64,000 nt of DNA from an uncultured Gemmatimonadota bacterium (GCA_951812955.1 OX638340.1:3296001-3360000); one strand, 5' to 3'. Numbered from the stretch's first letter, positions 4,968 to 40,643 are shown. Made by a program: numbers and translations. The notes: generated from the letters alone by a model not told the origin.

Positions 4968-6638
<1,671 letters not shown>

Positions 6639-6667
6639 TGCCTGCCGGGCAGTCCAAATGCATGAAG

Positions 6668-6704
6668 ACCGGCGCCGGCTGTTCAAGTCGGCGCCGGTTT
6701 TGTT
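6668..6704 (+). terminator. Rho-independent terminator after groEL
   Basis: Perfect 9-bp GC stem CCGGCGCCG/CGGCGCCGG with an 11-nt loop, followed by TTTTGTT. Confidence 0.65.
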
Positions 6705-6716: not shown

Positions 6717-7067
6717 ATGCCTACCTACCAGTATCGCTGCAACGAATGCAATTACGAGTTTTCCGAGTTCCAGTCGATTACCGCAGATCCCCTATCGACG
6801 TGCCCGGAATGCGGCGGCGCCGTGCAACGCCTCATCAGCGGCGGCGCGGGTTTCCTTTTCAAGGGTGACGGATTCTACGCCACGGATTACCGCAGCGAGA
6901 ACTACAAGAAGGCGGAAAAAGCCGATAAGGAATCCTCGTCGGCCAAATCCGACGGGTCCAAGTCCGACGGGTCCGGATCCTCCGACGCTTCAGGTACCGG
7001 CAAAGAGTCGAAATCCAGCGCCTCTTCAAAGGTCGATTCGTCTTCGGGTTCGTCCGAGTCCAACTGA
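6717..7067 (+). CDS. FmdB-family zinc-ribbon protein with Ser/Lys-rich acidic tail
   Basis: MPTYQYRCNECNYEF...CPECGG is the CxxC-N-CxxC FmdB signature. Low-complexity SSSAKSDGSKSDGSGSS tail. It ends 10 nt before moxR. Confidence 0.7.
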   Translation: MPTYQYRCNECNYEFSEFQSITADPLSTCPECGGAVQRLISGGAGFLFKGDGFYATDYRSENYKKAEKADKESSSAKSDGSKSDGSGSSDASGTGKESKSSASSKVDSSSGSSESN

Positions 7068-7076
7068 AGGATCAAC

Positions 7077-8090
7077 ATGACCACGGAAAACGTGAAATCA
7101 CCGGACGACATCAAGGCCATCCACGACCGAATATACGAGCAGAGCGTCTTCGTCGACCGGCTGGTATCGGAAATCGGCAAGGTGATCGTCGGTCAGCATT
7201 ACATGGTCGAACGCCTCCTGATCGGCCTGCTGACCAATGGGCACATTCTGCTCGAAGGCGTGCCGGGGCTGGCCAAGACCCTGGCCGTCAAGACCCTGGC
7301 GTCGACGGTCGCGGCACGGTTCCACCGCATTCAGTTCACGCCCGACCTGCTCCCCGCCGATCTGACGGGCACCATGATCTACGAAGCGGGCAGCGGCGAG
7401 TTCATCGCCAAGAAGGGACCGATCTTCGCCCATCTCATCCTCGCGGACGAAATCAACCGTGCGCCGGCGAAAGTGCAGAGCGCCCTACTGGAGGCCATGC
7501 AGGAGCACCAGGTCACCATAGGCGACGAGACCTTTCCGCTCGAGGACCCCTTCCTGGTGCTCGCCACGCAGAATCCCATCGAGCAGGAAGGCACCTACCC
7601 CCTTCCGGAGGCCCAGGTCGACCGATTCATGCTCAAGCTGACCACGACCTATCCCCGCAAGGAAGAGGAACTCGAGATCCTGAACCGCATGACGACCGGC
7701 GAGTCGGTTGAAGTGGAACAGGTCGTGTCGCTGGAGGATATCGTCCGTGCGAGATCGATCATCAACCAGGTCTACATGGACGAGAAGATCAAGCAATACA
7801 TCGTCGACCTCGTCTTCGCGACCCGCAACCCGGAGGACTACGGCGAGCTCACCGACATCCGCGACCTGGTGGAGTACGGCGCCTCGCCCCGTGCGACGAT
7901 CTACCTGGCGACGGCCGCGCGCGCGCACGCCTTCCTGCGCCGCAGAGGCTATGTCACCCCGGAGGACGTAAAGTCGATCGGAATGGACGTGTTGCGCCAC
8001 CGCGTCATCGTTACCTACGAGGCGGAGGCGGAAGACATGACCGCGGAACAAATCCTTCAGCGCGTGTTCGACTGTGTAGAGATCCCTTGA
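7077..8090 (+). CDS. MoxR-family AAA+ ATPase
   Basis: GVPGLAKT Walker A, LADEINRAP Walker B/sensor, 337 aa. Confidence 0.9.
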   Translation: MTTENVKSPDDIKAIHDRIYEQSVFVDRLVSEIGKVIVGQHYMVERLLIGLLTNGHILLEGVPGLAKTLAVKTLASTVAARFHRIQFTPDLLPADLTGTMIYEAGSGEFIAKKGPIFAHLILADEINRAPAKVQSALLEAMQEHQVTIGDETFPLEDPFLVLATQNPIEQEGTYPLPEAQVDRFMLKLTTTYPRKEEELEILNRMTTGESVEVEQVVSLEDIVRARSIINQVYMDEKIKQYIVDLVFATRNPEDYGELTDIRDLVEYGASPRATIYLATAARAHAFLRRRGYVTPEDVKSIGMDVLRHRVIVTYEAEAEDMTAEQILQRVFDCVEIP

Positions 8091-8968
8091 TACCCAGGCA
8101 GATTATCCAGAAAATCCGGCAGATCGAGATCCGGACCAAGCATCTCGTGAACGACGTGTTCAGCGGAGAGTACCACAGCGTCTTCAAGGGCCGCGGCATG
8201 GAATTCGCCGAGGTGCGCGAATACGAGCCGGGAGACGAGATCCGATCGATCGACTGGAACGTCACCGCCCGGCTGGGACGTCCCTATGTCAAGCGGTTCA
8301 TCGAGGAAAGGGAACTGACGGTCATTCTCATGGCCGACGTCAGCGCATCGGGCCATTTCGGCACGGCGAGCCAGATGAAGAGCGAGATTACCGCGGAAAT
8401 CTGCGCGCTGCTTGCTTTTGCGGCGATCCAGAACAATGACCGTGTCGGCCTCCTCATGTTCACCGATCAGATCGAGAAGTTCATCCCGCCGAAGAAGGGC
8501 CGGACCCATATTCTGCGGGTCATCCGGGAAGTGCTGTACACCCGGCCCGATCACACCGGCACCGACATCACACAAGCGCTCGATTACCTGAACCGGTTGC
8601 TGACGCGCAGGAGCATAGTCTTCATCATATCGGATTTTCTCGATTCGGACTATGCCAAGCCGCTGCGGGTGGCCAGCAAACGGCATGACGTGGTCGCCGT
8701 AACGATCACGGACCCGAGGGAACTCGATCTGCCCGGCATCGGGCTGATCGAACTGCAGGACGCGGAATCGGGAGAGGAAGCGCTCATCGACACCACCGAC
8801 GCCGCATGGCGCAAGCAGTATGCCGAGTACAACGAGGCCATTCGTGAAGACCGCGACCGGCAATTCAGGGTGACCGGCGTGGACGCAATCCATATCCGTA
8901 CGGACGAACCCTACATCGATCCGCTGATGCAGTTCTTCAAGCTGCGCGAACGCAAAATCGCGCGGTGA
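8087..8968 (+). CDS. DUF58 (vWA-like) protein partner of MoxR
   Basis: EYEPGDEIRSIDWNVTAR and LMADVSASG motifs. Start overlaps the moxR stop (ATGA). Confidence 0.85.
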   Translation: MIPRQIIQKIRQIEIRTKHLVNDVFSGEYHSVFKGRGMEFAEVREYEPGDEIRSIDWNVTARLGRPYVKRFIEERELTVILMADVSASGHFGTASQMKSEITAEICALLAFAAIQNNDRVGLLMFTDQIEKFIPPKKGRTHILRVIREVLYTRPDHTGTDITQALDYLNRLLTRRSIVFIISDFLDSDYAKPLRVASKRHDVVAVTITDPRELDLPGIGLIELQDAESGEEALIDTTDAAWRKQYAEYNEAIREDRDRQFRVTGVDAIHIRTDEPYIDPLMQFFKLRERKIAR

Positions 8969-9118
8969 ATCGAAAACGGCGCGCCGGACCTGTCCGCGGG
9001 ATCGGGTCGAAAGGCAACAAAGGCTTGCATTTCATCACTTTGTGCGGTAAATTAGGTTACTTTGAAAACCGCTGTCCGTTTCGCGCGAAACTTGCGGGAA
9101 AGGCACTGGGAGCCTGAC

Positions 9119-10066
9119 GTGATAGAAGTAAAGAATCTGACCAAGAAATACGGTAATTTCACCGCGGTCCGGGACGTGAGTTTCCAGGTCGAAAAGGGCG
9201 AGATTCTCGGATTCCTCGGGCCGAACGCCGCGGGCAAGACCACTACCATGCGGGTGCTGACCTGCTTCATGCCCGCGACGGCCGGCACCGCCCGGGTGGC
9301 AGGGTTCGACACGTTCAACCAATCCCTCGAGGTGCGCCGCAGGGTGGGATACCTCCCGGAAAACGTACCCCTTTACCTGGACATGCGGGTCCGTCCATAC
9401 CTGGAGTTTATCGCCCGGATCAAGGATATCCCTTCCCGCGATCGCAAAAAGGCCGTCAACCGCGTAATCGAGCTGGCCGCGCTGGAAGATGTCGAAAACC
9501 GGATTATCGGACATTGCTCCAAGGGATTTCGCCAACGGGTGGGACTGGCCCAGGCGCTGATACACGACCCCGACGTCCTGATCCTGGACGAGCCGACCAA
9601 CGGATTGGACCCGAAGCAGATCAACGAGGTCCGTGAGGTGATCAGGAGCCTGTCCGGGGACCATACCATTATTCTCAGCAGTCATATTCTGCCCGAAGTG
9701 AGCAAGACCTGCGAGCGTGTGCTCATTATCGACCGGGGACGGATCGTGGCCGGGGACACGCCGGCCAACCTGGACGCGCGGCTGCGGGGTTCGCAATCCA
9801 TCTCGGTACAAATCCGCGGTCCGGTCAAGGAAGTGATGGACCTGCTGAAGAAGAAGGATGGCGTGGTGGACGTGAAGACCAGGTCTTCACTCGGCGAAAG
9901 CCTCTGGCAATATGACATCGACATCATTCCCGGCAGGGATCTCCGTCCCGAGCTGGCATCGTCGGTGGTCGAAAACAACTGGGACCTCCTGGAACTCACC
10001 ACGGCCGGCATGAGCCTGGAAGAGATCTTCCTGGAGCTGACGACCCAGGAAGAGGAGGTATCCTGA
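9119..10066 (+). CDS. ABC transporter ATP-binding protein (GldA-like)
   Basis: GPNAAGKTT Walker A, LSGG-like CSKGFRQRV, ILDEPTNGLD. GTG start after a GGGAG RBS; the ORF-track start at 9062 is TTG and less likely. Confidence 0.85.
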   Translation: MIEVKNLTKKYGNFTAVRDVSFQVEKGEILGFLGPNAAGKTTTMRVLTCFMPATAGTARVAGFDTFNQSLEVRRRVGYLPENVPLYLDMRVRPYLEFIARIKDIPSRDRKKAVNRVIELAALEDVENRIIGHCSKGFRQRVGLAQALIHDPDVLILDEPTNGLDPKQINEVREVIRSLSGDHTIILSSHILPEVSKTCERVLIIDRGRIVAGDTPANLDARLRGSQSISVQIRGPVKEVMDLLKKKDGVVDVKTRSSLGESLWQYDIDIIPGRDLRPELASSVVENNWDLLELTTAGMSLEEIFLELTTQEEEVS

Positions 10067-10068
10067 CG

Positions 10069-10842
10069 ATGCAGGGATTACTGGCCATCTGGGAACGTGA
10101 ATTGAAAGCCTATTTCATTTCACCTATCTTCTACGCCCTTACCACCGTATTCATATTTATCGTAAGTTTCATGTTTTACCAGCAGTTAGGGAACTACACC
10201 GGGTATTTCATGCAGGCCGCGCAGTACCCGACGCTGATGGAGCGGATCAACATCAACGAGATGATCATGCGTCCGCTGTTCAATACCATGAGTTTCGTGG
10301 CCGTGCTGACCCTCATGCCCATGCTCACCATGCGGGTCTTTTCCGAGGAAAAGAAATCCGGCACGATCGAGCTGCTGCTGACTTCGCCGGTCAAGGACTG
10401 GCACGTGATCCTGGGCAAGTTTTTGGCGGCCTATACCCTGTACACGGTCATGATCGGGCTGACGATGATCTACCCGCTGGTGCTTCAGGCGTATGGCGAT
10501 CCCGACTGGGGTCCCATCTGGGCCGGCTACCTGGGCCTCCTGCTCCTCGGCGGCGGCGTGATAACCATCGGGTTGTTCGCCTCGTCGCTGACGGAGAACC
10601 AGATCGTGGCCGCCGTGATCTGCTTCGGCGCCGCGCTCATACTCTGGATGATGGACGTAGCCGCGGAATCGATGACCGGTACTTTGGGGGAAATTGTCGG
10701 CTACCTGTCCGTGCTGAGGCACTACAATACCTTTGAAAAAGGGATCATCGACTCGACGGACTGCCTGTTTTTCCTCAGTTTCATTTTCCTGGGCCTGTTC
10801 ATCACGGTCCGGTCGGTGGAATCGACGCGGTGGCGAGGATAA
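10069..10842 (+). CDS. ABC-2 family permease (GldF-like)
   Basis: Six predicted TM segments. Immediately follows the ATPase. Confidence 0.75.
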   Translation: MQGLLAIWERELKAYFISPIFYALTTVFIFIVSFMFYQQLGNYTGYFMQAAQYPTLMERININEMIMRPLFNTMSFVAVLTLMPMLTMRVFSEEKKSGTIELLLTSPVKDWHVILGKFLAAYTLYTVMIGLTMIYPLVLQAYGDPDWGPIWAGYLGLLLLGGGVITIGLFASSLTENQIVAAVICFGAALILWMMDVAAESMTGTLGEIVGYLSVLRHYNTFEKGIIDSTDCLFFLSFIFLGLFITVRSVESTRWRG

Positions 10843-10913
10843 CGCGTGTCCCGAATGGACGACATAGCCCGCGCCTTCGATAGTGCGGATCTGGCCAGGG
10901 GAGAAACCCTTAC

Positions 10914-12533
10914 ATGAAAAGTCTCGTTTCGTCCGCCGGTTACCTGGGTCTTATCCTGATCCTGGTCAGCGGGTACCTTTACGTCTCGGATGCGACGACG
11001 CAGCGCACGGCGTTGATCGCCCTGCTGGTAGGTCTGGCGCTCGGATCGACCTGGATGGTCTTCGAATGGGAGAAGGTATGGAACCTGCTCGGACGTCGTA
11101 CAACAAGATACGGCGCCAACACCGCCGTACTGGTGCTGCTGGTTATTGGAATCCTGGCATTCGCGAACATGATCGGCTCGCGATACACCCAGCGGTATGA
11201 CGCGACGGCCAACAAGCGGTTCAGCCTTGCCGACTTGTCCGTCAGCGTATTGAGCGAACTGGACCAGGAAGTTCACATCGTGGGGTTTTTCAGATCCAGC
11301 GGGCCCGATGCCACGAATCGGTATCTGCTCGACGACATGTTGAATCAGTTTCAGTACCATTCGGATCACATCACGTACGAATTCATAGACCCCGATCTCG
11401 AGCCGAGTATAGCGCGCCAGTACAACATCTCCGCCTACGGAACGGTCGTGTTCGAAAGCGAGGGCAAGACCGAGCACATCAACCGTTATCTCGAAGAAAG
11501 CGTGACCAACGCGCTGGTCAAGGTCACGCGCGAAGGCCAGAAGACCATTTACTTCCTGGAAGGCCACGGCGAACATAACGTCAACCTGACCGACCAGGCC
11601 GGCTACAACAGGATTATGCAGTTGCTCGAGAACCAGAGTTACACCGTCAGGAGCTTTTCGCTGCTCAGTGAGGTGGAGGTGCCGGCGGACTGTAACGTGC
11701 TGGTGGTGGCCGGTCCCCGGACCAACCTGGTGGGAAACGAGCAGGAAGCCATTCGCAACTACCTGGACCGCGGCGGCCGCGCCCTGTTCCTGATCAACCC
11801 CGACTATCCCGAAGAAAGCGCCGATCTGTCCGCGCTGCTCGCACACTGGAAGGTGCGGATCGGCGACAACGTCGTGATCGACGAAAGCGCCGTGGGCAGG
11901 TTGCCTGGCATGAACGAGTACATGCCGGCCGTCATGCAATACCCGGCCCATCCCATCACGCGCCCCCTTGGCAACACCGTGAGTTTCTTCCCACTGGTGC
12001 GGTCCATCGAAACGGCGTCGGCCTCAGACGATACCGTGGAGATTCAGACCATCGCCATGACCGGGGCCCGCAGCTGGGCGGAAACCACGCTGCCGGGATC
12101 GCCGGACGAAGCCATGGAGTACGTGCCCGTGCTGGATCCGGAAACGGACGAGCCTGGCCCGGTTTCCATCGCCGTGGCCATCACGGCCGTCCCCAGGGCG
12201 CTTCCGCGCAGGGACATGGCCACGCTGACGCCGCAGGAGATGGCGATGCGGCCGGAGGAGCACGAACTGAAAACCCGCATCGTGGTCGTTGGAAATTCAT
12301 CCTTTGCATCCAATGCCTACATCATGCTGCCGGGCAATGGCGACCTGGCCCTGAACATCCTCAACTGGCTCGCCCAGGAGGAGGACCTGCTCGCGATCCG
12401 GCCCAAGTCCAGCGACACCAGGCTGGTTCAGATTTCACTGAGCCAGATGTGGGATATCTTTATCTTCACCGGCATCCTCTCGCCCATCGCCATCCTGATC
12501 GCTGGCGTAGTGGTGTGGTGGAGAAGGAAATAG
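10914..12533 (+). CDS. GldG-like ABC-transport auxiliary protein
   Basis: 539 aa with N- and C-terminal TM anchors and conserved order after the ABC-2 permease (Gldg family). Confidence 0.7.
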   Translation: MKSLVSSAGYLGLILILVSGYLYVSDATTQRTALIALLVGLALGSTWMVFEWEKVWNLLGRRTTRYGANTAVLVLLVIGILAFANMIGSRYTQRYDATANKRFSLADLSVSVLSELDQEVHIVGFFRSSGPDATNRYLLDDMLNQFQYHSDHITYEFIDPDLEPSIARQYNISAYGTVVFESEGKTEHINRYLEESVTNALVKVTREGQKTIYFLEGHGEHNVNLTDQAGYNRIMQLLENQSYTVRSFSLLSEVEVPADCNVLVVAGPRTNLVGNEQEAIRNYLDRGGRALFLINPDYPEESADLSALLAHWKVRIGDNVVIDESAVGRLPGMNEYMPAVMQYPAHPITRPLGNTVSFFPLVRSIETASASDDTVEIQTIAMTGARSWAETTLPGSPDEAMEYVPVLDPETDEPGPVSIAVAITAVPRALPRRDMATLTPQEMAMRPEEHELKTRIVVVGNSSFASNAYIMLPGNGDLALNILNWLAQEEDLLAIRPKSSDTRLVQISLSQMWDIFIFTGILSPIAILIAGVVVWWRRK

Positions 12534-12546
12534 GAGACGAAACGCC

Positions 12547-14325
12547 GTGAGCGGTGGCCGATACACGATCATGCTGGCCTTGATTCTGGGTCTGCTGGCG
12601 TCCTACTTCTTCCTTTTCGTTAACGAGGAAGATCAGGTTGCGGAGATCGAGCGTGTATTCGAGATCAACCCCGAGGAGGTCGTCGAGATCAAGGTGACCG
12701 TGGACGGAGCGGCCACAACGATCGAGAAGGTACCCATGGAAGGTTGGGAGATTACCGATCCGGTCAGGTACGCCGCGGATCCCGACATCGTGGGTGCGTT
12801 GCTGCGTGAATTCTCCACTCTGTCCCCCGCACGTACTGTCGCCGATTCGGCGGAAGCCCTTTCGGAATACGGCCTTGAGAATCCGTCGGCGTCCGTCGAG
12901 GTCATCCGGGGTCTCGACAGGCCCATGGTGTTGCTGCTGGGAGACGTGAACCCGACGGGCGCAGCCCATTATGCCGTGGAAAGTGGTAAACGGAGGGTAT
13001 TCCTCATTTCCTCGCAGATCAATGGGAACCTGCGAAGGACGTCCGACGCATTGCGCGACCGCAGTCTGATTCGCGTCGAACGGGACGACGTGGAAGAGCT
13101 CATCCTCGAAAAGGGCGACCGCCGGATCGTCATCGGCCTGGACCCCTTCGGAACATGGCGCGTAGAAGCGCCGTACCGGCTCCCTGCCGAGCGCGATGAG
13201 GTGGTCAACGCCTTGACCACGATTATCGGGGCCTCGGCCATTTCCTTCGTCGACGAAGCGCCGTCTTCGCTTGATGAATACGGTTTGGCGAATCCGGTGA
13301 TGACGGCGACCGTGAAATCCGGCGACGGCAGCATTCTCCAGACGCTTTCACTGGGCAATGATCATTTGGGCCAGGTTTTTGCCATGACCAGCGAAAGACG
13401 CAACGTATACTCGGTATCGACTTCGATCCTGCGCCAGCTGGACCGGGAACCCGAGTTTTACAGGCGGGTCACGGCTTTCGATTTTCAATCCTACAGGATC
13501 CCCGACTTTTCGATGGAACTGGGAGACGAGACCGTAACCCTGGTCAAGCATGCCTTCGAAGACTGGCGTATGACGTCTCCCTACGAATTGAGAGCCAACG
13601 ACCGTTTTATCACGGCCATGCTGGACAGCCTGGAGATCATGCGTGTGCGGGAACACATACCGCTGACGGACGCGAACAAAGCGACTTACGGTTTCGAGAA
13701 CCCGGCTGCCAGCCTCTCGCTAACGATCGAGGACCGGGTGAGACCCCAGGAAATCCTGGTCGGCTCGGCCTCCGGCGATGGGCAGTATGAATATGTGATG
13801 GACCCCGCGGAGGAGTGGATCTACGCAGTGGATGAAACTACGCTGCAGCGTCTGCCTGCCTCCGCGATCGACTTGCGCGACAATAAGATCCTTCGGTTCA
13901 AAGGCTATCAGGTACACATGTTCGAGGTGGTCACGCCCGACGAACGTTTGCGGGTGCGCCGCGACCAGAAGCAAAGAGTCGTATGGAAAATCGAAGAGCC
14001 TTCATCGGGCGACGCCGACGCGATCTCGGTCGGCCGGGCGTTCAGCGAGCTGGATTCACTGTATTCGCAGGCCTTCATAACGGCAGACCCCGACGCTGAC
14101 CTGTCAACCTATGGACTGGACAGACCGATCATGGAACTTACGCTGCAGATCGGGGGCCGGGACGACGTGCTGGAAGAACGCTTATCGCTCCTGGTGGGCA
14201 AATCGTTTCCCGGGGACCAGAACCTGGTCTACGTCAAGCAAAGGAACAGCCCCGTCGTGTCCCTGGCCAGGGCCGGGTTCGTGGCCCGTATCAATGATAT
14301 GGTCGCCCAGACACCGAAATCGTGA
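12547..14325 (+). CDS. DUF4340-domain protein
   Basis: 592 aa, N-terminal TM, repeated beta-rich modules. It is the canonical fourth gene of ABC/ABC-2/GldG/DUF4340 clusters. Confidence 0.6.
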   Translation: MSGGRYTIMLALILGLLASYFFLFVNEEDQVAEIERVFEINPEEVVEIKVTVDGAATTIEKVPMEGWEITDPVRYAADPDIVGALLREFSTLSPARTVADSAEALSEYGLENPSASVEVIRGLDRPMVLLLGDVNPTGAAHYAVESGKRRVFLISSQINGNLRRTSDALRDRSLIRVERDDVEELILEKGDRRIVIGLDPFGTWRVEAPYRLPAERDEVVNALTTIIGASAISFVDEAPSSLDEYGLANPVMTATVKSGDGSILQTLSLGNDHLGQVFAMTSERRNVYSVSTSILRQLDREPEFYRRVTAFDFQSYRIPDFSMELGDETVTLVKHAFEDWRMTSPYELRANDRFITAMLDSLEIMRVREHIPLTDANKATYGFENPAASLSLTIEDRVRPQEILVGSASGDGQYEYVMDPAEEWIYAVDETTLQRLPASAIDLRDNKILRFKGYQVHMFEVVTPDERLRVRRDQKQRVVWKIEEPSSGDADAISVGRAFSELDSLYSQAFITADPDADLSTYGLDRPIMELTLQIGGRDDVLEERLSLLVGKSFPGDQNLVYVKQRNSPVVSLARAGFVARINDMVAQTPKS

Positions 14326-14326
14326 C

Positions 14327-15400
14327 ATGAGGCGGCATGCGGTGAGGTGTTCAAGCTTACTCGCCACCATCCTGGTGGCCGTCTCAACGAATCCGGCTGA
14401 TACCGAAGCCTTCCCGGCGCCGCAGGATGAAGACAACGGTTTCTCGATCGAGGCCTCGGTAGATCGCGACCGGATCACCGTGGGCGACCCCTTCCTGTAC
14501 CGGATCACCGTGAAGAGCCCCGGCAACTCCGCGGTCGAGTGGCCGGAATCAGGCCGCCCCCCGGAAGGTTTCGATCTCCTATCCTTCGAGCACGAGGGGC
14601 CCCTGTCCGGCCCCGGCGGAGTGAACGTCGATTCACTCCGCTACGAACTTACCCTTTATCGGACGGGCGAACATTCCATACCGTCATTCGCGCTGAAGTG
14701 CGTCCTGCTGGACGGTACCGAAATATCCGCCGAGTCGGATTCCATTTCCGTTACCGTCCTCAGCGTTATAGACGATGAGGCAGAGGATATACGCGATCTG
14801 AAGGATCCGGTGGAGATCCCTGGCGAAGTGCCCTGGTACTTCTGGGCGATCGGCGGACTGGTGCTGCTCGCCGTCGCGACGGGCCTCTTTCTGTACTTCA
14901 GGCGCCGCGGGAAACGGAACGATGCGAACGGCCCGGATACGGCTATCGAACGCCTTCCCGAAGAGATCGCCCTGGAGGAGCTGGATCGACTGGCTCTCAA
15001 GGAGTGGCTGGTCCAGGGACACGTGAAAGCACATTACTCCGCGCTGTCTGAAATCCTGCGACGGTACCTGTCCGTGCGCTACGGGATAGCCGCCATGGAA
15101 TATACGACTTCCGAATTGATAGCGGCGTTGAACGCACTCGATCTCGGCCATGAGGAGTCACGGACCGTCCGTGTACTGTTCGAAGAATGCGACATGGTTA
15201 AATTCGCAAGGTATACACCCGAAACGCACCGGCAGTCACTTTCCTTGGGGGAAGGACGGGAGATCGTCGAGCTGACGAGCCCTCCCCCCGCGCCGGAGTA
15301 TGCCGCGCTGGACCGGAATGACGCCGAAGCCGATTCACCGGTATCCGGCGAGGTTTCCGCCGGCGATGCGGGTTCCGTACGAGCACCGTCTAAGGACTGA
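14327..15400 (+). CDS. Short BatD-like membrane protein (BatD paralog)
   Basis: Signal peptide, single TM (WYFWAIGGLVLLAVATGLFLYF) and a C-terminal helical domain ending ...CDMVKFARY. This parallels the BatD C-terminus ...CDLARFART at 21812..23704. Confidence 0.55.
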   Translation: MRRHAVRCSSLLATILVAVSTNPADTEAFPAPQDEDNGFSIEASVDRDRITVGDPFLYRITVKSPGNSAVEWPESGRPPEGFDLLSFEHEGPLSGPGGVNVDSLRYELTLYRTGEHSIPSFALKCVLLDGTEISAESDSISVTVLSVIDDEAEDIRDLKDPVEIPGEVPWYFWAIGGLVLLAVATGLFLYFRRRGKRNDANGPDTAIERLPEEIALEELDRLALKEWLVQGHVKAHYSALSEILRRYLSVRYGIAAMEYTTSELIAALNALDLGHEESRTVRVLFEECDMVKFARYTPETHRQSLSLGEGREIVELTSPPPAPEYAALDRNDAEADSPVSGEVSAGDAGSVRAPSKD

Positions 15401-15407
15401 AGCACTC

Positions 15408-16415: not shown

Positions 16416-16451
16416 GCCGGGGAGGACGCGTACCGGTTCTCCGGAGCAGAC

Positions 16452-17483
16452 ATGCGATTTGCCCAACCCGAGTTTCTTTACCTGCTTGCGATTGCGCCGC
16501 TGCTCATCCTTTTCTTTATCGTTCGGTTCCGGCACAGGCGCGACGTGCTCAGGAAGTTAGGCGAGCAGGCACTGCTGGACAGACTGTCCCGTTCAACCGT
16601 AGTTGGCAGGCAGCCGGTCAAGGCGGCGCTCGTGGTCCTGGCCCTGGTCTGCTTTGTTCTGGCACTCGCGCGTCCGCAGTTCGGAACCCGGTCCGAAACA
16701 ATTCGTCAGACCGGATTTTCTGTCATGGCCGCACTGGATGTTTCCAATAGTATGCTGGCCGAGGATGTCCGGCCGAATCGCCTCATACGGGCCAAGTATG
16801 CCGTTCGGTCCCTGGTGAGAAAACTCCGGAACGATCAGATCGGGCTGGTTGTTTTCGCCGGTTCCGCTTTTCTGCAGTGTCCGCTGACTTCCGATTACAG
16901 CATCGTCGAGCTCTTTCTGGACGGCATCGATACCCGGACTGTGGGCACGCAGGGAACGGCCATTTCGCAAGCGCTGCAAATCGCGGGCCAGTCGTTTCAA
17001 CAGGACCATAGGGGATACAAAGCCATCGTACTGATCACAGACGGAGAAGACCACCAGGAAGACCCGGTCGCCGTCGCAGCGGAACTGGCAGCCCAGGGCG
17101 TACGCGTTTACGTGGTGGGCATCGGTACCCCGAACGGCGTACCCATACCCATCATGGGCGAGGACGGCACGGTCGCCGGCCACATGCGGGACCGGTCCGG
17201 CGCAGTGGTCATGAGCCGTCTGGACGAGTCCACGTTGCGTCAGATCGCGGAAACGACCGGAGGGGCTTACTACAGGGCGTTGCCGGGGGGTGAAGAAATG
17301 GACCTGGTATACGATACCATCTCCTCGCTGGAGAGGGCGGAATTCGAAAGCAGGGAATTTACGCAGTACGTTGAACGTTTCCAGTATATATTGTTGTTCG
17401 GTTTGCTGTTACTGGTCGCGGATACCGTTATACGGGACCGCAGATTGCTCGACGAATCGCCGGAATCGGAACCAAAGCCATGA
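16452..17483 (+). CDS. batB: BatB, vWA-domain membrane protein
   Basis: DVSNSM MIDAS, TDGEDH, C-terminal TM. Confidence 0.8.
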   Translation: MRFAQPEFLYLLAIAPLLILFFIVRFRHRRDVLRKLGEQALLDRLSRSTVVGRQPVKAALVVLALVCFVLALARPQFGTRSETIRQTGFSVMAALDVSNSMLAEDVRPNRLIRAKYAVRSLVRKLRNDQIGLVVFAGSAFLQCPLTSDYSIVELFLDGIDTRTVGTQGTAISQALQIAGQSFQQDHRGYKAIVLITDGEDHQEDPVAVAAELAAQGVRVYVVGIGTPNGVPIPIMGEDGTVAGHMRDRSGAVVMSRLDESTLRQIAETTGGAYYRALPGGEEMDLVYDTISSLERAEFESREFTQYVERFQYILLFGLLLLVADTVIRDRRLLDESPESEPKP

Positions 17484-18190
17484 GCGTAATCCTGGTCATC
17501 CTGTTGTTTCTTGGTTGGCAGCCGGCCGCGAAGAATGCTCGTGGAAACCAGCTGTACCAACAGGAAAAATACGAAGAGGCGCTGGCGTCCTATACTGAAG
17601 CACTGGCGGAGGACGGCGAAAACCCGGCCTTGCACTACAATCGGGCCAACGCGCTGTACCGCTCCGAGCAGTATCCCTCTGCCGTGCAGTCGTATACGAA
17701 CGCATTGGACGGCGAAGCGCCGCTCGATGGCCGGGCCCGGTACAACCTGGGCAACAGCCTGTATCGCATGGGCCGGCTTGAAGACTCCATCGAGGCTTAC
17801 AAGGAGGCGCTTCGGATCAAGTCGGACGATCTCGACATGAAATACAACCTGGAATTCGTGACACGACAGCTACAGGAGCAGCAGGAAGAACAGGAACGCC
17901 GGAACGCGCAGAACCGTCAGGAAGACGGGGAAGATCAGGAAGACCGGGAGGATCAGGAGAATCAGAATGACCAGGAAGACCAGGAGGATCAGGAGAATCA
18001 GGAAGACGACGAGGGTCAGCAGCCGGAAGGAGAGGATGAGCCGCAACGGCAGCAGGCTCCCCGGGAGGGTGAACTGAGCAAAGCAGAGGCAGAACGACTC
18101 CTGAATGCCCTGAACAGGGACGAGCAGGATATACAGCGCCGGCTGCGCAGACAGCAGGCCACCCAGGTCAATCCGGAGAAAGACTGGTAA
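17480..18190 (+). CDS. batC: BatC, TPR-repeat protein with acidic (QEDxED) tail
   Basis: TPR helices (YNRANALYRSEQY, YNLGNSLYRMGRLEDSIEAYKEAL) plus a low-complexity EDQED repeat. Confidence 0.75.
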   Translation: MSVILVILLFLGWQPAAKNARGNQLYQQEKYEEALASYTEALAEDGENPALHYNRANALYRSEQYPSAVQSYTNALDGEAPLDGRARYNLGNSLYRMGRLEDSIEAYKEALRIKSDDLDMKYNLEFVTRQLQEQQEEQERRNAQNRQEDGEDQEDREDQENQNDQEDQEDQENQEDDEGQQPEGEDEPQRQQAPREGELSKAEAERLLNALNRDEQDIQRRLRRQQATQVNPEKDW

Positions 18191-18218
18191 CCGTTCCACG
18201 AATCGCGATGAAAACACC

Positions 18219-19622
18219 ATGATTGTCATGAAATTCGGCGGCACTTCAGTCGGCAGCGCGGAGGCCATTCAACAAGTCGTCGAGATCGTCAGAAAATACC
18301 GCGAACGCGACCTGTTGGTGGTCCTGTCCGCCATGAGCACGGTAACCGACTCGCTTCGGGAAATGGCCGCGGAGGCCTGCGGGGGGACGGAGCCCTCGTC
18401 TTCCCTCTCGGCTTTGAGGAAACGCCATGACGAGACGATTCGCGCCTTGGCCGAAGGGGAGGAGCGGAACCGGGCCCTCGAAGTCTGTGAGGGACTGATC
18501 GATGAACTATCGGGAATCCTGCACGGTATCACGCTGCTCAAGGAGCTTTCCCCGCGTTCGGTCGACCTGGTCAGTTCCTTCGGCGAACGCCTTTCCGTGG
18601 TTGTCGTCTCCGCGGCCCTCAGGTCGGCCGGCCTGTCGTCTCTTCCTGTCGATGCGCGCGAATACGTGAAGACGAACGAGCGCTACACCGAAGCGGAAGT
18701 GAATTTCGCCGAAACGGAACGCCGCCTGTCGGCGGGACTGGTCCCCATGGTATCCGACGGACGCATTCCCATCATAACGGGGTTTATCGGTTCGACCGAT
18801 GAAGGTGTCACCACGACCCTCGGGCGGGGCGCTTCGGACTACACCGCCTCCCTTGTCGCCGGTGCGATACAGGCAGAAGAAGTATGGATCTGGACGGACG
18901 TGGACGGCGCGATGACGGCCGACCCGCGCATGGTCGAGGACGCCCGCGTACTCAAGGAGATTTCGTATCTCGAGGCCGCCGAGATGTCCTATTTCGGCGC
19001 CAAGGTGCTCCATCCCATGACCATGCAGCCCGCGGTAAAACAGGAGATTCCCATCCGGATCCGGAACACCTTCCGGACCGAAAACGGCGGTACGGTCATT
19101 TCTTCGCGCACCTTTGAGGCCCCGCTGGGGGTGAAGGCCGTGACAAGCATCGACCGGCTCTGCCTGATCGTGGTCGAAGGAACCAGTCTCAGCAGAACGC
19201 CGGATACGCACGCCCGGCTCTTCAAGACCACGGCGGAACGCAAGACCCAGGTCATCATGATTACGCAGGCTTCCTCCGAACACGACATCTGCCTGGTCGT
19301 TGACGAAAAGGACAGCCAGGGAACCGTCCGGGCGCTGAAGAAGGAATTCCGTCATGAAGTCGCCGAAGGCAGCCTGGAGGAAATCTCGGTTCAACCCGAC
19401 CTGGCCGTGGTGGCGGTGGTCGGCGGCGGCATGAAGGGAACCCCGGGCATCGCGGCCCGCACATTCGGCATCCTCGGCGAACACGGGGTCAATATCATCG
19501 CCATCGCCCAGGGTTCATCCGAGCTGAACATTTCATTCATTGTCGAACGGAACGACCTGCAGAAGACCGTTCAACTGGTACACGCGTCCTTTGGACTCGG
19601 AGAGGACGGAGATTTTGAGTAA
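18219..19622 (+). CDS. Aspartate kinase with C-terminal ACT domains
   Basis: MKFGGTSV ... two ACT regions (VAVVGGGMKGTPGIAARTF). Confidence 0.9.
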   Translation: MIVMKFGGTSVGSAEAIQQVVEIVRKYRERDLLVVLSAMSTVTDSLREMAAEACGGTEPSSSLSALRKRHDETIRALAEGEERNRALEVCEGLIDELSGILHGITLLKELSPRSVDLVSSFGERLSVVVVSAALRSAGLSSLPVDAREYVKTNERYTEAEVNFAETERRLSAGLVPMVSDGRIPIITGFIGSTDEGVTTTLGRGASDYTASLVAGAIQAEEVWIWTDVDGAMTADPRMVEDARVLKEISYLEAAEMSYFGAKVLHPMTMQPAVKQEIPIRIRNTFRTENGGTVISSRTFEAPLGVKAVTSIDRLCLIVVEGTSLSRTPDTHARLFKTTAERKTQVIMITQASSEHDICLVVDEKDSQGTVRALKKEFRHEVAEGSLEEISVQPDLAVVAVVGGGMKGTPGIAARTFGILGEHGVNIIAIAQGSSELNISFIVERNDLQKTVQLVHASFGLGEDGDFE

Positions 19623-20721
19623 ATTAAACCTGTTTCAGTTCGGGAAGGGCAATATAGGCGGCGCATTGATCAGGCAGGTGGTGGACCGTACCGGGTCCCT
19701 GGCCGAAGCGAGCGGCCTTTGTTTCGAGTACGTAGGGATCTGCGGCCGGGACCAGGTGGTTTTCGATCCAGGGGGACTCAACGAGGCGCTTCAAGTAACC
19801 GGTGGACTCGACCGGTTGCTCGACGACGGGGACAGGCGTGCGGCCTACCCGGGCGCTGTTGCCATGATGGAACGTCTGCTGGATGATCCACCCGCGAACC
19901 TGTGCGTTATCGATACTACGTCCGCCGATATGACCGAAGTGCACCTGGGCTGTCTGCGCCGCGGCATTCCGGTCGTGACGGCCAACAAGAAACCCATAAC
20001 CGATCGGAGCAGTGCGTACGAAGAGATCCAGCGGCTCGGGCGCGCCCGGCGAATGCGATACTGGTACGAAACGACCGCCGGCGCCGGGCTGCCCGTCGTC
20101 AGTACGGTCAAGGAACTGGTGGACACCGGCGACGTGGTGACCGAAATCGCAGGATGCCTCAGCGGTACGCTGGGATACATCTGTTCCCGGCTTGACAGCG
20201 GGGGAGCCTTCTCGGAGATCGTCCGGGAAGCGAAGGAACTCGGTTTTACGGAACCAGATCCGCGGGACGACCTGAACGGAATGGACGTAGCAAGGAAAGC
20301 GCTGATCCTCGCGCGTGAGATCGGATACCGGCTTGAAATCGAAGAGCTGGAGATCAAGGGTATGGTCTCCGACGCCTTGCTGGAAGCCCCTTCGGTCGAG
20401 GCGTTCATGGATAAGCTCACCCTGGAAGACGCGGACTACGCACAGCGGGTCCAATCCTGCGGAAACAACGGGCAGGTGCTGCGATTCGTCGCGACGGTGG
20501 GAGACGACACTTGCCGGGTGGGACTCGAAAGTGTGGACCGGGAGAGTCCCCTGGGAAGCCTGGCCGGTCCGGATAACATGGTCGTATGCACCACGAAACG
20601 ATACCGAGACAACCCGCTGATCGTGCGGGGGCCGGGCGCCGGACCGGAGGTTACCGCCGGTGGCCTGTTTGGAGACCTGATCAAGGCCGCGAGAATGCTG
20701 TCCGGCAGCAATCATCCTTAA
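19615..20721 (+). CDS. hom: Homoserine dehydrogenase
   Basis: [11 protein letters not shown] Rossmann; HSD catalytic and C-terminal regions. Proposed TTG start overlaps the aspartate-kinase stop by 8 nt; an alternative ATG at 19540 lies inside the upstream gene. Confidence 0.8.
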
Positions 20722-20748
20722 CCTGTACACCTGATTCGGGAGCATGAA

Positions 20749-21807
20749 GTGTCGAAGAATGAGATCAAAGTGGGTATCCTGGGCGCCACCGGGGCGGTAG
20801 GACAGCGGTTCGTCCAGTTACTCGAAAACCATCCGTGGTTCAGGGTCACCGCGCTTGCGGCTTCGGAGCGGTCGGCCGGCAAACCCTACTCGGAAGCCGT
20901 GACCTGGCGGCTGGATACGCCGATCCCGGCAGCCGTCGTCGAGATACCCGTATCGCTTTGCGAGCCGGGACTGGACTGCGACCTGGTATTCTCCGGCCTG
21001 GATTCCGCGGTGGCTGGCCCCATCGAGGCGGCTTTCGCGGCGGCCGACTACGCCGTGGTGAGCAATTCGAAGAACCACCGCATGGACGAAGACGTTCCCC
21101 TGCTCGTTCCCGAGGTCAACGCGGACCATTGCGGGATCATCGACCGGCAGCGTAAGCGCAGGGGGTATGGGCGCGGATTCATCGCGACCAATCCGAACTG
21201 TTCCACCATCGGTCTTGCGATGGCGCTGAAACCGATTGCCGACCGCTTTGGAATAACGCGGGTCGCGGTTACCACCATGCAGGCCCTGTCCGGCGCCGGT
21301 TATCCGGGGGTTTCTTCGCTCGAAATCCTGGATAACGTGCTTCCCTACATCGGGGAAGAAGAAGAGAAGATGGAGCGGGAAACCCTGAAGCTGCTGGGCA
21401 GGTTCCACGACGGCCGGATTAAAAACGCCCGGACCGTCGTCAGCGCCCAGTGCAACCGGGTACACGTCCAGGACGGACACATGGAATGCGTCTCGGTGGC
21501 CCTGGAGAACGAGACAGACGTAAACGGCCTCGCCGAAGCGCTGCGCAACCACCGGGGGCCGCCCCAGGAACTCGGCCTGCCATTTGCCCCCAGGCGCCCG
21601 ATTATCGTCCGCGATGAACCGGACCGGCCGCAGCCGAGGATAGACCGCGACGCCGAAAACGGCATGGCCGTGACGGTGGGGCGCATACGGCCCTGCCCCG
21701 TACTCGACATGAAATTCGTGGTGCTGTCACACAATACCGTCCGTGGGGCCGCCGGAACCGCCATTTTGAACGCGGAACTGCTGCGGACCCGGGGATTTCT
21801 GGACTGA
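20749..21807 (+). CDS. asd: Aspartate-semialdehyde dehydrogenase (archaeal/Bacteroidetes type)
   Basis: [15 protein letters not shown], active-site CSTIGL, 352 aa. Confidence 0.9.
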
Positions 21808-21811
21808 GCTC

Positions 21812-23704
21812 ATGAAACGCTGGATACACAGCAGCCTCATCGCGTTGCTGCTTCTCATCACTCCATCCGTATCGGGGCAGGAGATCTCCGTCACCGCGGA
21901 GGTGAGCCGTAACCGAATGACGGTCGACGAAACACTGGTGCTGACTGTCTCGGTCTCCGGTTCCAATCTGGGCGACGTCCCGAAGCCCGTGTTGCCCGAC
22001 ATGCAGTCGTTCATCGTCATCGGCAGCACCTCCTCCACGTCCTCCAGCTTCAATCTGGTTAACGGGAAACTGTCCTCGTCCAAATCGGTCCGGTTCATCT
22101 ACCAGTTGAAGCCCCGGAATTCAGGGACCTTCGTCATCGACCCGGCAGAGGTGACTTACGACGGCGTCAAGCACGAAACCACGCCTATTTCGATAGAAGT
22201 TGCTCCGTCCGCCTCAGGCGCCGCGCCTGCGGCAGGAAACCGTGTCGCACCGGGGGGCGGTTCCCCTTCCTCGGCCATGGGTTCAATGCCGGATGACACG
22301 GCACAACCGGACCTGGGCGACGCAGTCTACATCCGGACCACCCTGGACAAGAAGCAGGCCTACGTGGGTGAGCAGGTAACGGTGACCTATACGCTATATA
22401 CCCGCCTGGGTCTTTCGAATGCGCGTTACGACGTAGTCCCCTCCTATACCGGTTTCTGGATGGAAGAGCAGTTTACCGCGCATCACCTCGATTTCATGGA
22501 AGAGATCATCGCCGGCCGGCGGTACGCCGTATCGAAACTGCGTCAGATCGCGTTGTTCCCCACCGTGACCGGGGAGCTGACCATCGACCCGTTGTCGATG
22601 GTCTGTGACGTACAGGGCGAAAGGTCCCGAAGAAGCCTCTTCGACAGCTTTCTCAACGATCCCTTCGATACGTTTTTCTCGAACACGCGCCAGGTCAGGG
22701 TGGCATCCGTGGAGCAGACCGTGCGGGTACTGCCATTGCCGGACGCGGGCCGCCCTGCCGGTTTCAGCAACGCGGTGGGCGATTTCTCACTCGAGGCGAC
22801 CGTGGATCAGGCCACCACCGAAGTAAACCAGCCAGTGACGCTGACGGTCGTGCTGGCCGGCGAGGGCAACCTGAAGACCGTGGAAGATCCCGTCCTGCCG
22901 CCGCTCGGGGTTTTCAATGAATACCAGTCCGGCAACAAGGCGGAATACGAGTCGGGCGGGTTGCGCATTTCCGGCACAAAAACCTGGGAACACGTGCTGA
23001 TCCCCACGGCCCCCGGCGAACACATCATCGCGCCGCTCGAATTTCCGTTTTTCAATCCCGATACGGATTCCTACCGGATTACGACAACCGATCCGGTAAC
23101 GGTAACCGTCCTGCCGGCCAGCGGAGTGCAGGCGGCTGCCGCCGTTATACCGCGCAAGACTCCCGTCCGGCAAATACGCAAGGATATACAATACATCAAA
23201 CCCGAAACGGTTTTCCTCGGCGACCAGGGAGAGGTTCTGTACCAGTCGTCCTGGTACCTGCTATTGCATGTCCTGCCCGTCGCGGCGGTCCTGGCCACGG
23301 TACTTTACAGGTCGCATGCCCATCGCCTCCGGCGCGACGCCGGTTATGCCCGCCGGCGACGGGCGAAAAGCAACGCCCTGGGCGAACTGAGGCAGTCCGG
23401 AGAGAAGCTGAAGCGGGATGCGCTCGACCAGGCCATCACCGGCATATCCAACGCGTTGTACGGTTATATCGCCGCCAGGTGCAATCTGCCGACGGCCGGC
23501 CTGACGTCGGCCCGCGTCGTCGAACTCCTCAGGGAACGAGGCGTGGACGAAGAGACGGTCGGTCTGGTCAGGGACTGCCTGGACTCCTGTGACCTGGCCC
23601 GTTTCGCCCGGACGGCGCATTCGGCCGAACACACCGAAAACCTTCTTGGCAGGGCACGGAACGGAATCGAATCCATCGAATCGCAGTTAAACGGTGACCG
23701 GTGA
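21812..23704 (+). CDS. batD: BatD (oxygen-tolerance protein)
   Basis: 630 aa, signal peptide, beta-rich ectodomain, TM near residue 470, cytoplasmic helical tail. Confidence 0.75.
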   Translation: MKRWIHSSLIALLLLITPSVSGQEISVTAEVSRNRMTVDETLVLTVSVSGSNLGDVPKPVLPDMQSFIVIGSTSSTSSSFNLVNGKLSSSKSVRFIYQLKPRNSGTFVIDPAEVTYDGVKHETTPISIEVAPSASGAAPAAGNRVAPGGGSPSSAMGSMPDDTAQPDLGDAVYIRTTLDKKQAYVGEQVTVTYTLYTRLGLSNARYDVVPSYTGFWMEEQFTAHHLDFMEEIIAGRRYAVSKLRQIALFPTVTGELTIDPLSMVCDVQGERSRRSLFDSFLNDPFDTFFSNTRQVRVASVEQTVRVLPLPDAGRPAGFSNAVGDFSLEATVDQATTEVNQPVTLTVVLAGEGNLKTVEDPVLPPLGVFNEYQSGNKAEYESGGLRISGTKTWEHVLIPTAPGEHIIAPLEFPFFNPDTDSYRITTTDPVTVTVLPASGVQAAAAVIPRKTPVRQIRKDIQYIKPETVFLGDQGEVLYQSSWYLLLHVLPVAAVLATVLYRSHAHRLRRDAGYARRRRAKSNALGELRQSGEKLKRDALDQAITGISNALYGYIAARCNLPTAGLTSARVVELLRERGVDEETVGLVRDCLDSCDLARFARTAHSAEHTENLLGRARNGIESIESQLNGDR

Positions 23705-24558
23705 AAGCCACTAAACCATCCAGCATGCGCGCAAAGGGCCAATTGAAAGCCGGCACGAACCCGCTGGGACGACCGGAAATCCAGGGTTTTCGCAACCTGG
23801 TCTCGGGGTTGATCGTGGCCGTTTTTGTCAGCGGTTTCGCGTCCGCGGGTTGCGCCGGGGAAACGGCAGACAGGCAGACCGTGGAGTTGTACCGGCAGGG
23901 CAACCTGCTCTACGAGGGCGGAAAGTATGCGGAAGCGAGCCGGACGTACGAACGCATCATCGAACGCGGTATACGTAATGGGCACGTGTACTACAATCTG
24001 GGCAACGCGTATTACAAACAGGACCAGATAGGCCGTGCCATCCTGGCCTACGAGAGGGCATCCCGGCTCATGCCCCGGGACGTGGATTTGAGGAGCAACC
24101 TGGACCTGGCCAACGAACGGACGACCGACCGTATAGCCGTGGACGTGCCCTGGTTCGGCAGGCAGGCGCTGGACGCGGTGACCGTGAACCAGGCCACGGC
24201 CGCTGCAACCGCGGCCGGGTTCCTCGCGTCGCTGGCCCTGGTGTTCTACCTGCTCGCTACACGGCCTCGTGCGCGGTCCGCCGCCGGTTACGCACTGCTG
24301 GCCACGAGCCTTGTCCTACTTATGGCCATCGGGTTCATAAGTATAAAAATATACGACGTTCTGGAGAACCGGAATGGTATCGTCCTGAGTCCGGCGGCCG
24401 TCGTCAGGACGAGTCCGGACGCTTCATCCGAACCGGTTTTCACCCTGCACGAAGGCGCAAAGGTCCAGTTGGTCGAACACCGGGACGAATGGACGAGAAT
24501 CCGCCTGCCGGACGGCAAAAACGGTTGGCTTTCCCGGGAAGACCTGGAAGGCATCTGA
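23701..24558 (+). CDS. batE: BatE, TPR + SH3b-domain membrane protein
   Basis: TPR (YYNLGNAYYKQDQIGRAILAYERA), TM, C-terminal SH3b-like domain (GWLSREDLEG). GTG start overlaps the batD stop. Confidence 0.7.
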   Translation: MKATKPSSMRAKGQLKAGTNPLGRPEIQGFRNLVSGLIVAVFVSGFASAGCAGETADRQTVELYRQGNLLYEGGKYAEASRTYERIIERGIRNGHVYYNLGNAYYKQDQIGRAILAYERASRLMPRDVDLRSNLDLANERTTDRIAVDVPWFGRQALDAVTVNQATAAATAAGFLASLALVFYLLATRPRARSAAGYALLATSLVLLMAIGFISIKIYDVLENRNGIVLSPAAVVRTSPDASSEPVFTLHEGAKVQLVEHRDEWTRIRLPDGKNGWLSREDLEGI

Positions 24559-25818: not shown

Positions 25819-25851
25819 GAAGGCGTGGAGGTTTTCAGCCGGTCTTACGGT

Positions 25852-25943
25852 AGCCTGAGCATCGCGCCGTGCGCAGCCTGAGCGTCGCGCCAACGGCAGT
25901 GTAAGCATCGCGCCAACGGCAGTGTAAGCATCGCGCCGCCGAC
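25852..25943. repeat. 23-bp tandem repeat x4 between convergent genes
   Basis: agcctgagcatcgcgccgtgcgc / agcctgagcgtcgcgccaacggc / agtgtaagcatcgcgccaacggc / agtgtaagcatcgcgccgccgac. Confidence 0.8.
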
Positions 25944-40640: not shown

Positions 40641-40643
40641 GGC

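Follow-up and report, generated by a model that had tools for sequence, protein, structure and literature searches.

Why the genes of a Bat (MoxR-vWA) aerotolerance system should be interleaved with those of an exporter-like ABC transporter and with three enzymes of aspartate metabolism is the question raised by a locus from an uncultured Gemmatimonadota bacterium (GCA_951812955.1, OX638340.1:3296001-3360000). Bat/MoxR-vWA genes occur in many bacterial phyla and affect stress tolerance and virulence; to our knowledge, the Bat system has no known molecular function and has been unexplained since 1999. We analyzed the whole stretch of 64,000 nt, hereafter the window, using Pfam and NCBIfam scans and a listing of open reading frames (ORFs). 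A run of 16 co-directional genes, from fmdB to batE, occupies positions 6717–24558 of the + strand, with 15 of them in 7077–24558, and every gene call was confirmed by Pfam and NCBIfam. A preliminary description, made from the sequence alone, had counted 18 genes over 17.5 kb in that last interval, had treated them as a single co-transcribed unit, and had taken the exporter and the threonine/lysine-branch enzymes as possible pointers to the substrate of Bat. The reading that we favor, with a joint probability of roughly 0.55, is that of a composite, lineage-conserved cluster of three modules, expressed from at least two overlapping transcription units, in which the ABC cassette would be a working partner of Bat and the amino-acid genes a passenger. 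Taken separately, the link with the ABC genes is probably genuine, and the single supra-operon and the amino-acid link probably are not.

The first insertion is a cassette of four co-directional genes, identified by Pfam in the order ABC_tran, ABC2_membrane, ABC_transp_aux and DUF4340. They code for a GldA-like ABC ATPase (9119–10066), with TIGR03522 (GldA) as its best NCBIfam match; a GldF-like ABC-2 permease with six transmembrane (TM) segments (10069–10842; PF12679, TIGR03518 and TM scan); a GldG-like auxiliary protein (10914–12533; PF09822 (ABC_transp_aux), PF23357, PF14258 (DUF4350); DUF7088); and a DUF4340 protein (12547–14325; PF14238, 232 bits, in four stretches or repeats). The cassette lies between the gene for a DUF58 protein and that for a DUF4381 protein, here called mini-BatD. 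The second insertion comprises the genes for aspartate kinase (AK), homoserine dehydrogenase (Hom) and aspartate-semialdehyde dehydrogenase (Asd), after batC; both interruptions are thus where the preliminary description had placed them. To follow these arrangements in other genomes we collected BatA homologues with their contigs, scanned one genome per GTDB species with a BatA profile, and classified the loci by phmmer with the window proteins; the survey, whose loci are designated L plus a number, was extended with a GldG-profile scan of Joint Genome Institute (JGI) metagenomes and with an AK search. The same four-gene cassette was found in dozens of loci.

Outside the clade to which the window belongs, the cassette was repeatedly found next to MoxR, DUF58 or Bat genes. 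It occupies the DUF58|mini-BatD junction, as in the window, in Gemmatimonadota CP070758 (L008), Zixibacteria SM23_81 (L036), L097 and L099, and the mini-BatD|BatA junction in Calditrichota L055 and L063; in L008, L036 and L063 the junctions are of 33 nt or less, or overlapping. In L153 (5214–12795), seven genes run in the order MoxR-DUF58-DUF4381-ABC-ABC2-GldG-DUF4340 and are followed by a gene on the opposite strand, with no BatA-E after it; the same order is seen in L105 and L118, whose contigs end at or just past the DUF4340 gene, and in L141 the cassette is immediately upstream of moxR. A Calditrichaceae locus (L062, 7491–10001) contains, at the mini-BatD|BatA junction, DUF4340 alone (Pfam, 157 bits), without ABC or GldG genes, and an Omnitrophica metagenome-assembled genome (MAG; L043, 5469–9273) contains, at its DUF58|DUF4381 junction and with stop/start overlaps, a different ABC pair (ABC_tran plus PF16949, ABC_tran_2) and a transglutaminase-like gene. 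Overall, MoxR/DUF58/Bat genes are combined with the cassette, or with DUF4340 alone, in no fewer than six lineages and four architectures, frequently with start/stop overlap; in a rough neighbor-joining tree, the Bat-linked GldG proteins are distributed over several separate branches. The association with Bat noted in the preliminary description is therefore not random, recurring outside the clade in several lineages with differing insertion points. Because of this recurrence across lineages and architectures, selection on the linkage can be argued, if not proven, which suggests a functional coupling of the cassette and Bat; the seven-gene operon of the L153 type represents a minimal version of this coupling.

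The cassette has the same three-part design as GldA/GldF/GldG, the ABC transporter of gliding motility in Flavobacterium johnsoniae, and the best NCBIfam match of each of the three window proteins is the corresponding Gld model. Nevertheless, the scores are well under the equivalog cutoffs (320.6 against 402.6 bits with TIGR03522 for the ABC ATPase, 145.8 against 288.5 bits with TIGR03518 for the permease, and 85.9 against 389.85 bits with the GldG model, TIGR03521, for the GldG-like protein), DUF4340 is a fixed fourth member, and the cassette has a wide distribution among phyla that do not glide. The ORFs that we scanned over the 64 kb of the window included no company genes of the gld, spr or type IX secretion system kinds. 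The free-standing ABC-ABC2-GldG-DUF4340 cassettes (L096, L100, L106, L133, L154 and others) have the same gene order as that of the window, which differs in being embedded in a Bat operon, with DUF4340 at 1 nt from the mini-BatD gene.

An archaeal precedent exists for the combination. Operons of arCOG01314 (DUF4350, GldG-like) contain genes for MoxR, vWA and Ig-like membrane proteins, and their products were predicted to form a complex for secretion or membrane remodelling (Makarova, Galperin and Koonin, 2015; PMC5898192). In that neighborhood, a GldG-like extracytoplasmic protein with a flavodoxin fold accompanies COG0714 MoxR, vWA and Ig-like ectodomain proteins, and the GldG-like protein of the window likewise matches DUF4350, passing the Pfam threshold. 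In contrast, the window is bacterial, has a bona fide ABC-2 transporter, DUF4340 and BatA-E, and lacks S-layer-type proteins. A literature search retrieved no paper tying Bat genes to GldG or DUF4340 in bacteria; as far as we found, this linkage has not been previously described in bacteria, although the archaeal precedent tempers its novelty.

As for DUF4340 itself, a role as ABC transporter subunit has been predicted for it in SAR11, and Verrucomicrobium spinosum has an essential DUF4340 gene (bioRxiv 10.64898/2025.12.11.693642; PMC12283558). The AlphaFold2 model of the window protein (predicted local distance difference test score, pLDDT, of 88.6) shows an N-terminal helix or TM anchor followed by four repeated alpha/beta modules. 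Sequence searches of the PDB with DUF4340, GldG and BatD returned nothing useful, other than a sub-threshold IFT52 hint for GldG. A TM scan of the GldG-like protein revealed a large extracytoplasmic domain flanked by N- and C-terminal TM anchors. By hydropathy, TM-like anchors are present in the permease, GldG, DUF4340, mini-BatD, BatA, BatB, BatD and BatE, with BatC as the exception among the Bat proteins, and the large domains of GldG and DUF4340 lie outside their anchors; MoxR, DUF58, the ABC ATPase, FmdB, AK, Hom and Asd are without TM segments in the same scan.

The host operon is a complete and co-directional Bat module, as had been claimed, with all component families identified by Pfam and NCBIfam. 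An FmdB-family zinc-ribbon gene (6717–7067; TIGR02605, 67.9 bits, above cutoff), with a Ser-rich tail seen in the translation, precedes genes for the AAA+ ATPase MoxR (7077–8090; PF07726 AAA_3, 217 bits; AAA_lid_2) and for DUF58 (8087–8968; PF01882, 285 bits; no TM), the cytoplasmic vWA-type partner of MoxR. After the cassette come mini-BatD (14327–15400; PF14316), BatA (15408–16415) and BatB (16452–17483), both with PF07584 and a vWA domain (PF00092/PF13519), and BatC (17480–18190), a TPR protein (TPR families) with an acidic tail that scores 75.7 bits, below cutoff, with the BatC model NF047507. AK-Hom-Asd separate BatC from BatD (21812–23704; PF13584, 119.5 bits) and BatE (23701–24558; TPR plus SH3b, SH3_3 with 41 bits). 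BatA and BatB each have two N-terminal and one C-terminal TM segments in the TM scan, and score below the cutoffs of the Leptospira-specific NCBIfam models. The product of the DUF4381 gene had been labeled a short membrane protein and is in reality of 357 aa; its other label, batD-like, is fair, since its TM and C-terminal domain aligns to the C-terminus of BatD (E = 9e-6), and its orthologue in L008 scores as PF13584 BatD.

Compared with the canonical Bat operon of Bacteroides, Leptospira, Francisella and Riemerella (MoxR-DUF58-(DUF4381)-BatA-BatB-BatC-BatD-BatE), the window has all eight component families in the canonical relative order and orientation. It includes the MoxR-DUF58 pair, BatA and BatB with double TM and vWA, and BatC, BatD and BatE, but not as a contiguous, moxR-led single operon: the ABC cassette intervenes after DUF58 and AK-Hom-Asd do so after BatC, groESL and fmdB lie in front of it, and moxR-DUF58 is probably separated transcriptionally from batA-E by an internal promoter.

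Junctions were computed with starts corrected from homologues (ABC ATPase and Hom). For the ABC ATPase, a TTG at 9062 was rejected as the start in favor of GTG 9119, on the basis of the homologues (313–315 aa) and a GGGAG ribosome-binding site; with that start, the gap after DUF58 is 150 nt. This gap and that between ABC2 and GldG (71 nt) exceed the 0–40 nt that had been given for the whole cluster; the remaining junctions are of −8 to +36 nt: fmdB-moxR, 9 nt; moxR-DUF58, −4 nt; ABC-ABC2, 2 nt; GldG-DUF4340, 13 nt; DUF4340-DUF4381, 1 nt; DUF4381-BatA, 7 nt; BatA-BatB, 36 nt; BatB-BatC, −4 nt; BatC-AK, 28 nt; AK-Hom, −8 nt; Hom-Asd, 27 nt; Asd-BatD, 4 nt; and BatD-BatE, −4 nt. The Ser-rich FmdB gene does abut moxR, at 9 rather than 10 nt. 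In the ABC2-GldG spacer of the window there is one copy (10850–10870) of a GC-rich hairpin unit, CGGTCCCGAATGGACGAC, that is present as two or three tandem copies in close relatives, in the ABC2-GldG spacers of L010 and L011 and in the BatC-AK spacer of L011; it looks like a small REP-like (repetitive extragenic palindromic) repeat expanding in intergenic spacers.

The order of genes seen in the window recurs in about 20 independent public contigs. The full order, with both insertions, is present in L001, L005, L006, L009 to L014, L089, L093, L094 and L169, and the short contig L002, which starts just upstream of BatA, shows the BatA-BatB-BatC-AK-Hom-Asd-BatD portion. Among the full-order loci, identity to the window goes down to 67 % for BatA, ca. 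48 % for DUF4340 and 59 % for AK, and the public labels of the clade are inconsistent ("bacterium", Gemmatimonadetes, Latescibacterota, Zixibacteria). An AT-rich planktonic sublineage (L003 and L004; L090 is incomplete) has groEL-fmdB-moxR-DUF58-ABC cassette-mini-BatD-BatA-E without AK-Hom-Asd, and BatC and BatD are separated by 27 nt in L003/L004. The layout is therefore conserved across a deep uncultured clade and is neither an assembly accident nor a one-off. In L021, L035, L051 and L076 (KSB1-like and "Cytophagia"-labeled MAGs), an FmdB-family gene followed by an additional mini-BatD gene is likewise situated upstream of the Bat operon, so that the association of FmdB with Bat reaches beyond the clade of the window.

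Upstream of fmdB are groES (4637–4924, read from the sequence) and groEL (4998–6638; TIGR02348, 876 bits), also on the + strand, and groEL is present upstream of fmdB/moxR in all the clade loci that extend that far. The 78 nt between groEL and fmdB include a terminator hairpin (6665–6704), identified by RNA folding and clade alignment, with a GC-rich stem of 16 bp followed by UUUUGUU; its centroid has −36.8 kcal/mol (z = −3.5), and the alignment of relatives shows that it is kept across the clade with compensatory changes. Since the hairpin ends ca. 12 nt 5′ of the ribosome-binding site (Shine-Dalgarno sequence) of fmdB, there is no room for fmdB-moxR-DUF58 to have a promoter of their own, and these genes would be most simply expressed by read-through; the groESL transcript is thus its most likely source. 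This fits with the induction by heat and oxidative stress of the bat operon of Riemerella (PMC11834572), and the adjacency of groESL is the one indirect hint at a part of the window cluster in oxygen or stress tolerance. Two side observations concern groESL. In another lineage (L117 and L147), groEL lies 1.5–2 kb upstream of a free-standing ABC-ABC2-GldG-DUF4340 cassette, echoing the clade of the window. Additionally, a perfect −24/−12 element of the sigma-54 type (TGGCAC-GGAAA-TTGCA, GG-N10-GC; 4523–4539) is situated ca. 100 nt ahead of groES; the spacer there is AT-rich, and no CIRCE-like inverted repeat stood out in it when read by eye; an RpoN-dependent groESL would be unusual.

A second signal was found in the spacer between DUF58 and the ABC gene. 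This spacer varies from 102 to 233 nt, and its sole conserved part in 12 aligned relatives is a block that in the window reads AACAAAGGCTTGCAT-17 nt-TAAATT (9016–9053), including TTGCAT-17 nt-TAAATT at 9025–9053, with the invariant form A(A/T)CAAA-NN-CTTGC-N19-TAnATT in the clade. The block is retained even in relatives with 40–50 % GC; its core pattern has a single match in the 64-kb window, and it occurs once per locus, at the DUF58-ABC junction, in 17 of the 19 clade loci, with a degenerate copy in L169, the most divergent. We read it as a putative internal promoter of the sigma-70 type; a sigma-54 reading was rejected because the GG-GC spacing is of 12 and not 10 nt. Between the block and the ribosome-binding site, in the 5′ untranslated region of the ABC gene (9075–9090), there is a palindrome, TTTCGCGCGAAA, that the GC-rich relatives share and the AT-rich ones lack; it may act as an operator or form a small hairpin.

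A generic scan for promoters and terminators gave no intergenic + strand site inside the cluster, in keeping with the earlier statement that internal terminators are not obvious; it also missed the groEL terminator and the promoter-like block, both of which emerged only from aligning the spacers of relatives. An Rfam scan of the whole window returned only a tRNA-Gly, with neither riboswitches nor leaders in the vicinity of the AK and ABC genes. Downstream of batE, no terminator-like site was found in the 63 nt that precede a class-V aminotransferase gene (24622–25818, + strand; PF00266, SufS/PvdN-like), which follows BatE in clade loci and may be co-transcribed with the cluster. The groEL terminator and the conserved promoter-like block at DUF58|ABC make at least two transcription units likely; the cluster probably consists of two linked units rather than one simple operon, against the single unit of 18 genes proposed earlier.

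The aspartate genes behave differently from the cassette. AK (18219–19622; Pfam and TIGR00657) and Hom (19615–20721; PF00742, 164 bits) best match, in NCBIfam, the N- and C-terminal halves of the bifunctional ThrA, and their reading frames overlap by 8 nt (TTGAGTAA), suggesting a split ThrA with translational coupling. AK scores 408 bits with TIGR00657 (cutoff 209) and 515.6, slightly below the cutoff of 528, with the equivalog NF004938, and Asd (20749–21807) is of the archaeal type (TIGR00978 asd_EA, 451 bits; cutoff 301). No AK, Hom or Asd gene lies 10 kb or less from any of the 75 BatA loci outside the clade, and in 54 of these loci BatC adjoins BatD; the three genes were not detected in the non-clade GldG loci either. 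The one outgroup AK that we looked up (P0167, 49 % identity, the closest sampled) is a lone gene. The best 120 matches of the AK search included no AK from the Tara contigs of the sublineage without the trio, which is compatible with both relocation and loss. Absence from 75 other loci and the solitary outgroup AK point to ordinary biosynthetic genes inserted once and only in this clade, so that the trio is most likely a housekeeping passenger. In view of its clade specificity, its lack in L003/L004, its absence from the 75 other Bat loci and the lone outgroup AK, the earlier idea that the threonine/lysine-branch enzymes could point to the substrate of Bat is not supported.

Several observations weigh against the reading of a composite cluster with the cassette as partner. 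Among the 75 non-clade BatA loci, DUF58-DUF4381-BatA are contiguous in 56, and the GldG-seeded metagenome scan, an unbiased one, yielded six loci linked to Bat/MoxR genes and 17 with flanks of at least 7 kb and no Bat genes; with 56/75 Bat operons and 17/23 informative GldG cassettes unlinked, the partnership is facultative at best. Several of the linked lineages are within one broad FCB-type (Fibrobacteres-Chlorobi-Bacteroidetes) radiation; common ancestry far back, or transfer en bloc, may make the independent events look more numerous than they are, a matter for which the neighbor-joining tree is too crude. The promoter and the read-through are deduced from sequence, a simple sigma-70 scan missed the block, and its −35 element matches at three of six positions; the structure comparison with the DUF4340 model produced no informative relative, and hence no functional clue; and the trio has been kept from 100 % to 59 % AK identity, which is long for a neutral passenger. 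The contiguity of most Bat operons and the predominance of free-standing GldG cassettes also agree with a historical accident, by which both insertions would have occurred neutrally in one ancestor and been frozen by descent, with no functional tie to Bat; the modules work alone in other genomes, and housekeeping genes (groESL, the AK trio and the aminotransferase) are intermixed in the same stretch. We consider this unlikely, because an accident hardly accounts for the presence of the cassette, or of DUF4340 alone, beside MoxR/DUF58/Bat genes in four architectures and six or more lineages with overlaps of the translational-coupling type, for an unlike ABC system at the same junction in L043, or for the analogous GldG-like/MoxR/vWA linkage in archaea. 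The preliminary description had proposed that strong internal promoters and terminators, together with contiguous bat genes in related genomes and the insertions elsewhere, would reveal a fortuitous juxtaposition; this is borne out in part, as the bat genes of more distant relatives are contiguous in 56 of the 75 loci.

The two explanations that assign a role to the amino-acid genes fare worse. One supra-operon, starting upstream of fmdB/moxR and with an aspartate-derived product, or a derivative of it, serving the ABC exporter and Bat as cargo or cofactor, agrees with the common direction of the genes, their short gaps or overlaps and the lack of terminator-like sites inside the cluster, with the tight BatC-AK and Asd-BatD junctions (28 and 4 nt), and with the conservation of the whole arrangement, trio included, to 59 % AK identity. 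It is nonetheless improbable, since the conserved promoter-like block divides the cluster at DUF58|ABC, the trio is gone in L003/L004 with the ABC and Bat parts intact, its genes are near none of the 75 other Bat loci and were not detected in the non-clade GldG loci, and the enzymes are of standard biosynthetic types. Alternatively, aspartate semialdehyde or homoserine could feed an envelope component (diaminopimelate, or a homoserine-derived lipid or modification) whose demand rises with Bat/ABC activity. In its favor, the batC-batD position of the trio is stable over a deep clade, the neighboring products are all envelope proteins according to the TM scan, and Asd supplies the diaminopimelate/lysine branch. 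However, homoserine dehydrogenase draws flux away from diaminopimelate, no dap, thr, met or lipid-modifying genes accompany the trio, its loss in L003/L004 came with no other change, and no such association is seen at the 75 other Bat loci, all of which makes this coupling very improbable.

Other features were noted in the window outside the cluster. Between the convergent aminotransferase and sulfotransferase genes (25850–25940), there are two tandem copies of AACGGCAGTGTAAGCATCGCGCC and related GCATCGCGCC units, with no classic terminator. Positions 1–2000 may represent a small segment of mobile or foreign DNA: their GC content is markedly lower, 0.505 compared with ca. 0.60, and they contain a ParE-toxin gene (1225–1491, − strand), a small upstream partner ORF (1475–1747) and an ORF without Pfam match (59–829). 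On the − strand, positions 39999–41000 carry adjacent YtfJ-like (Spore_YtfJ) and DUF2953 genes, families named for sporulation proteins of Firmicutes, in a non-Firmicute genome.

In the composite cluster that we favor, a first unit, fmdB-moxR-DUF58, would be expressed via partial read-through of the groESL heat-shock transcript, and a second one would run from the DUF58-ABC promoter through the cassette, mini-BatD, BatA-C, AK-Hom-Asd and BatD-BatE, perhaps to the aminotransferase; gene order and signals are there to be seen, and the transcription that we assign to them is presumptive. The ABC cassette, a widespread free-standing module of four genes, would have been repeatedly joined to MoxR-DUF58-(mini-BatD)-Bat genes, and would specify an ABC-2 exporter bearing two large extracytoplasmic or periplasmic arms, the GldG-like and the DUF4340 proteins. 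For its assembly or activity in the envelope, this exporter would be served by a chaperone pair in the cytoplasm, MoxR/DUF58, and by the vWA/TPR/Ig-like Bat proteins, anchored in the membrane. From the recurrent linkage, the topology and the archaeal precedent, we infer that exporter and Bat together may constitute a stress-induced machine for envelope secretion or remodelling. AK-Hom-Asd would have been inserted once, in the ancestor of the clade, and kept by operon inertia or expression hitch-hiking rather than by any need of Bat.

A broader possibility, which we put forward only tentatively, is that a GldA/F/G-like ABC-2 exporter whose periplasmic arm is DUF4340 has in MoxR-DUF58-DUF4381, whether BatA-E are present or not, a core dedicated to its assembly or gating; exporter and core would together form an unrecognized stress-induced trans-envelope machine for secretion or surface remodelling. 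The fusion of the cassette, repeated independently of architecture and including the L153 operon without BatA-E and the insertion of DUF4340 alone, provides Bat with a specific and testable partner, and suggests directing the search toward a cargo exported or assembled at the surface, and away from redox chemistry. The amino-acid genes, by comparison, are probably a distraction within a striking cluster, which is likely wired to the heat-shock regulon via groEL read-through in addition to having its own promoter. If the core is indeed such an assembly or gating module, Bat would gain a concrete molecular job, and the GldG-like/MoxR/vWA complex of archaea would have this machine as its counterpart in bacteria.

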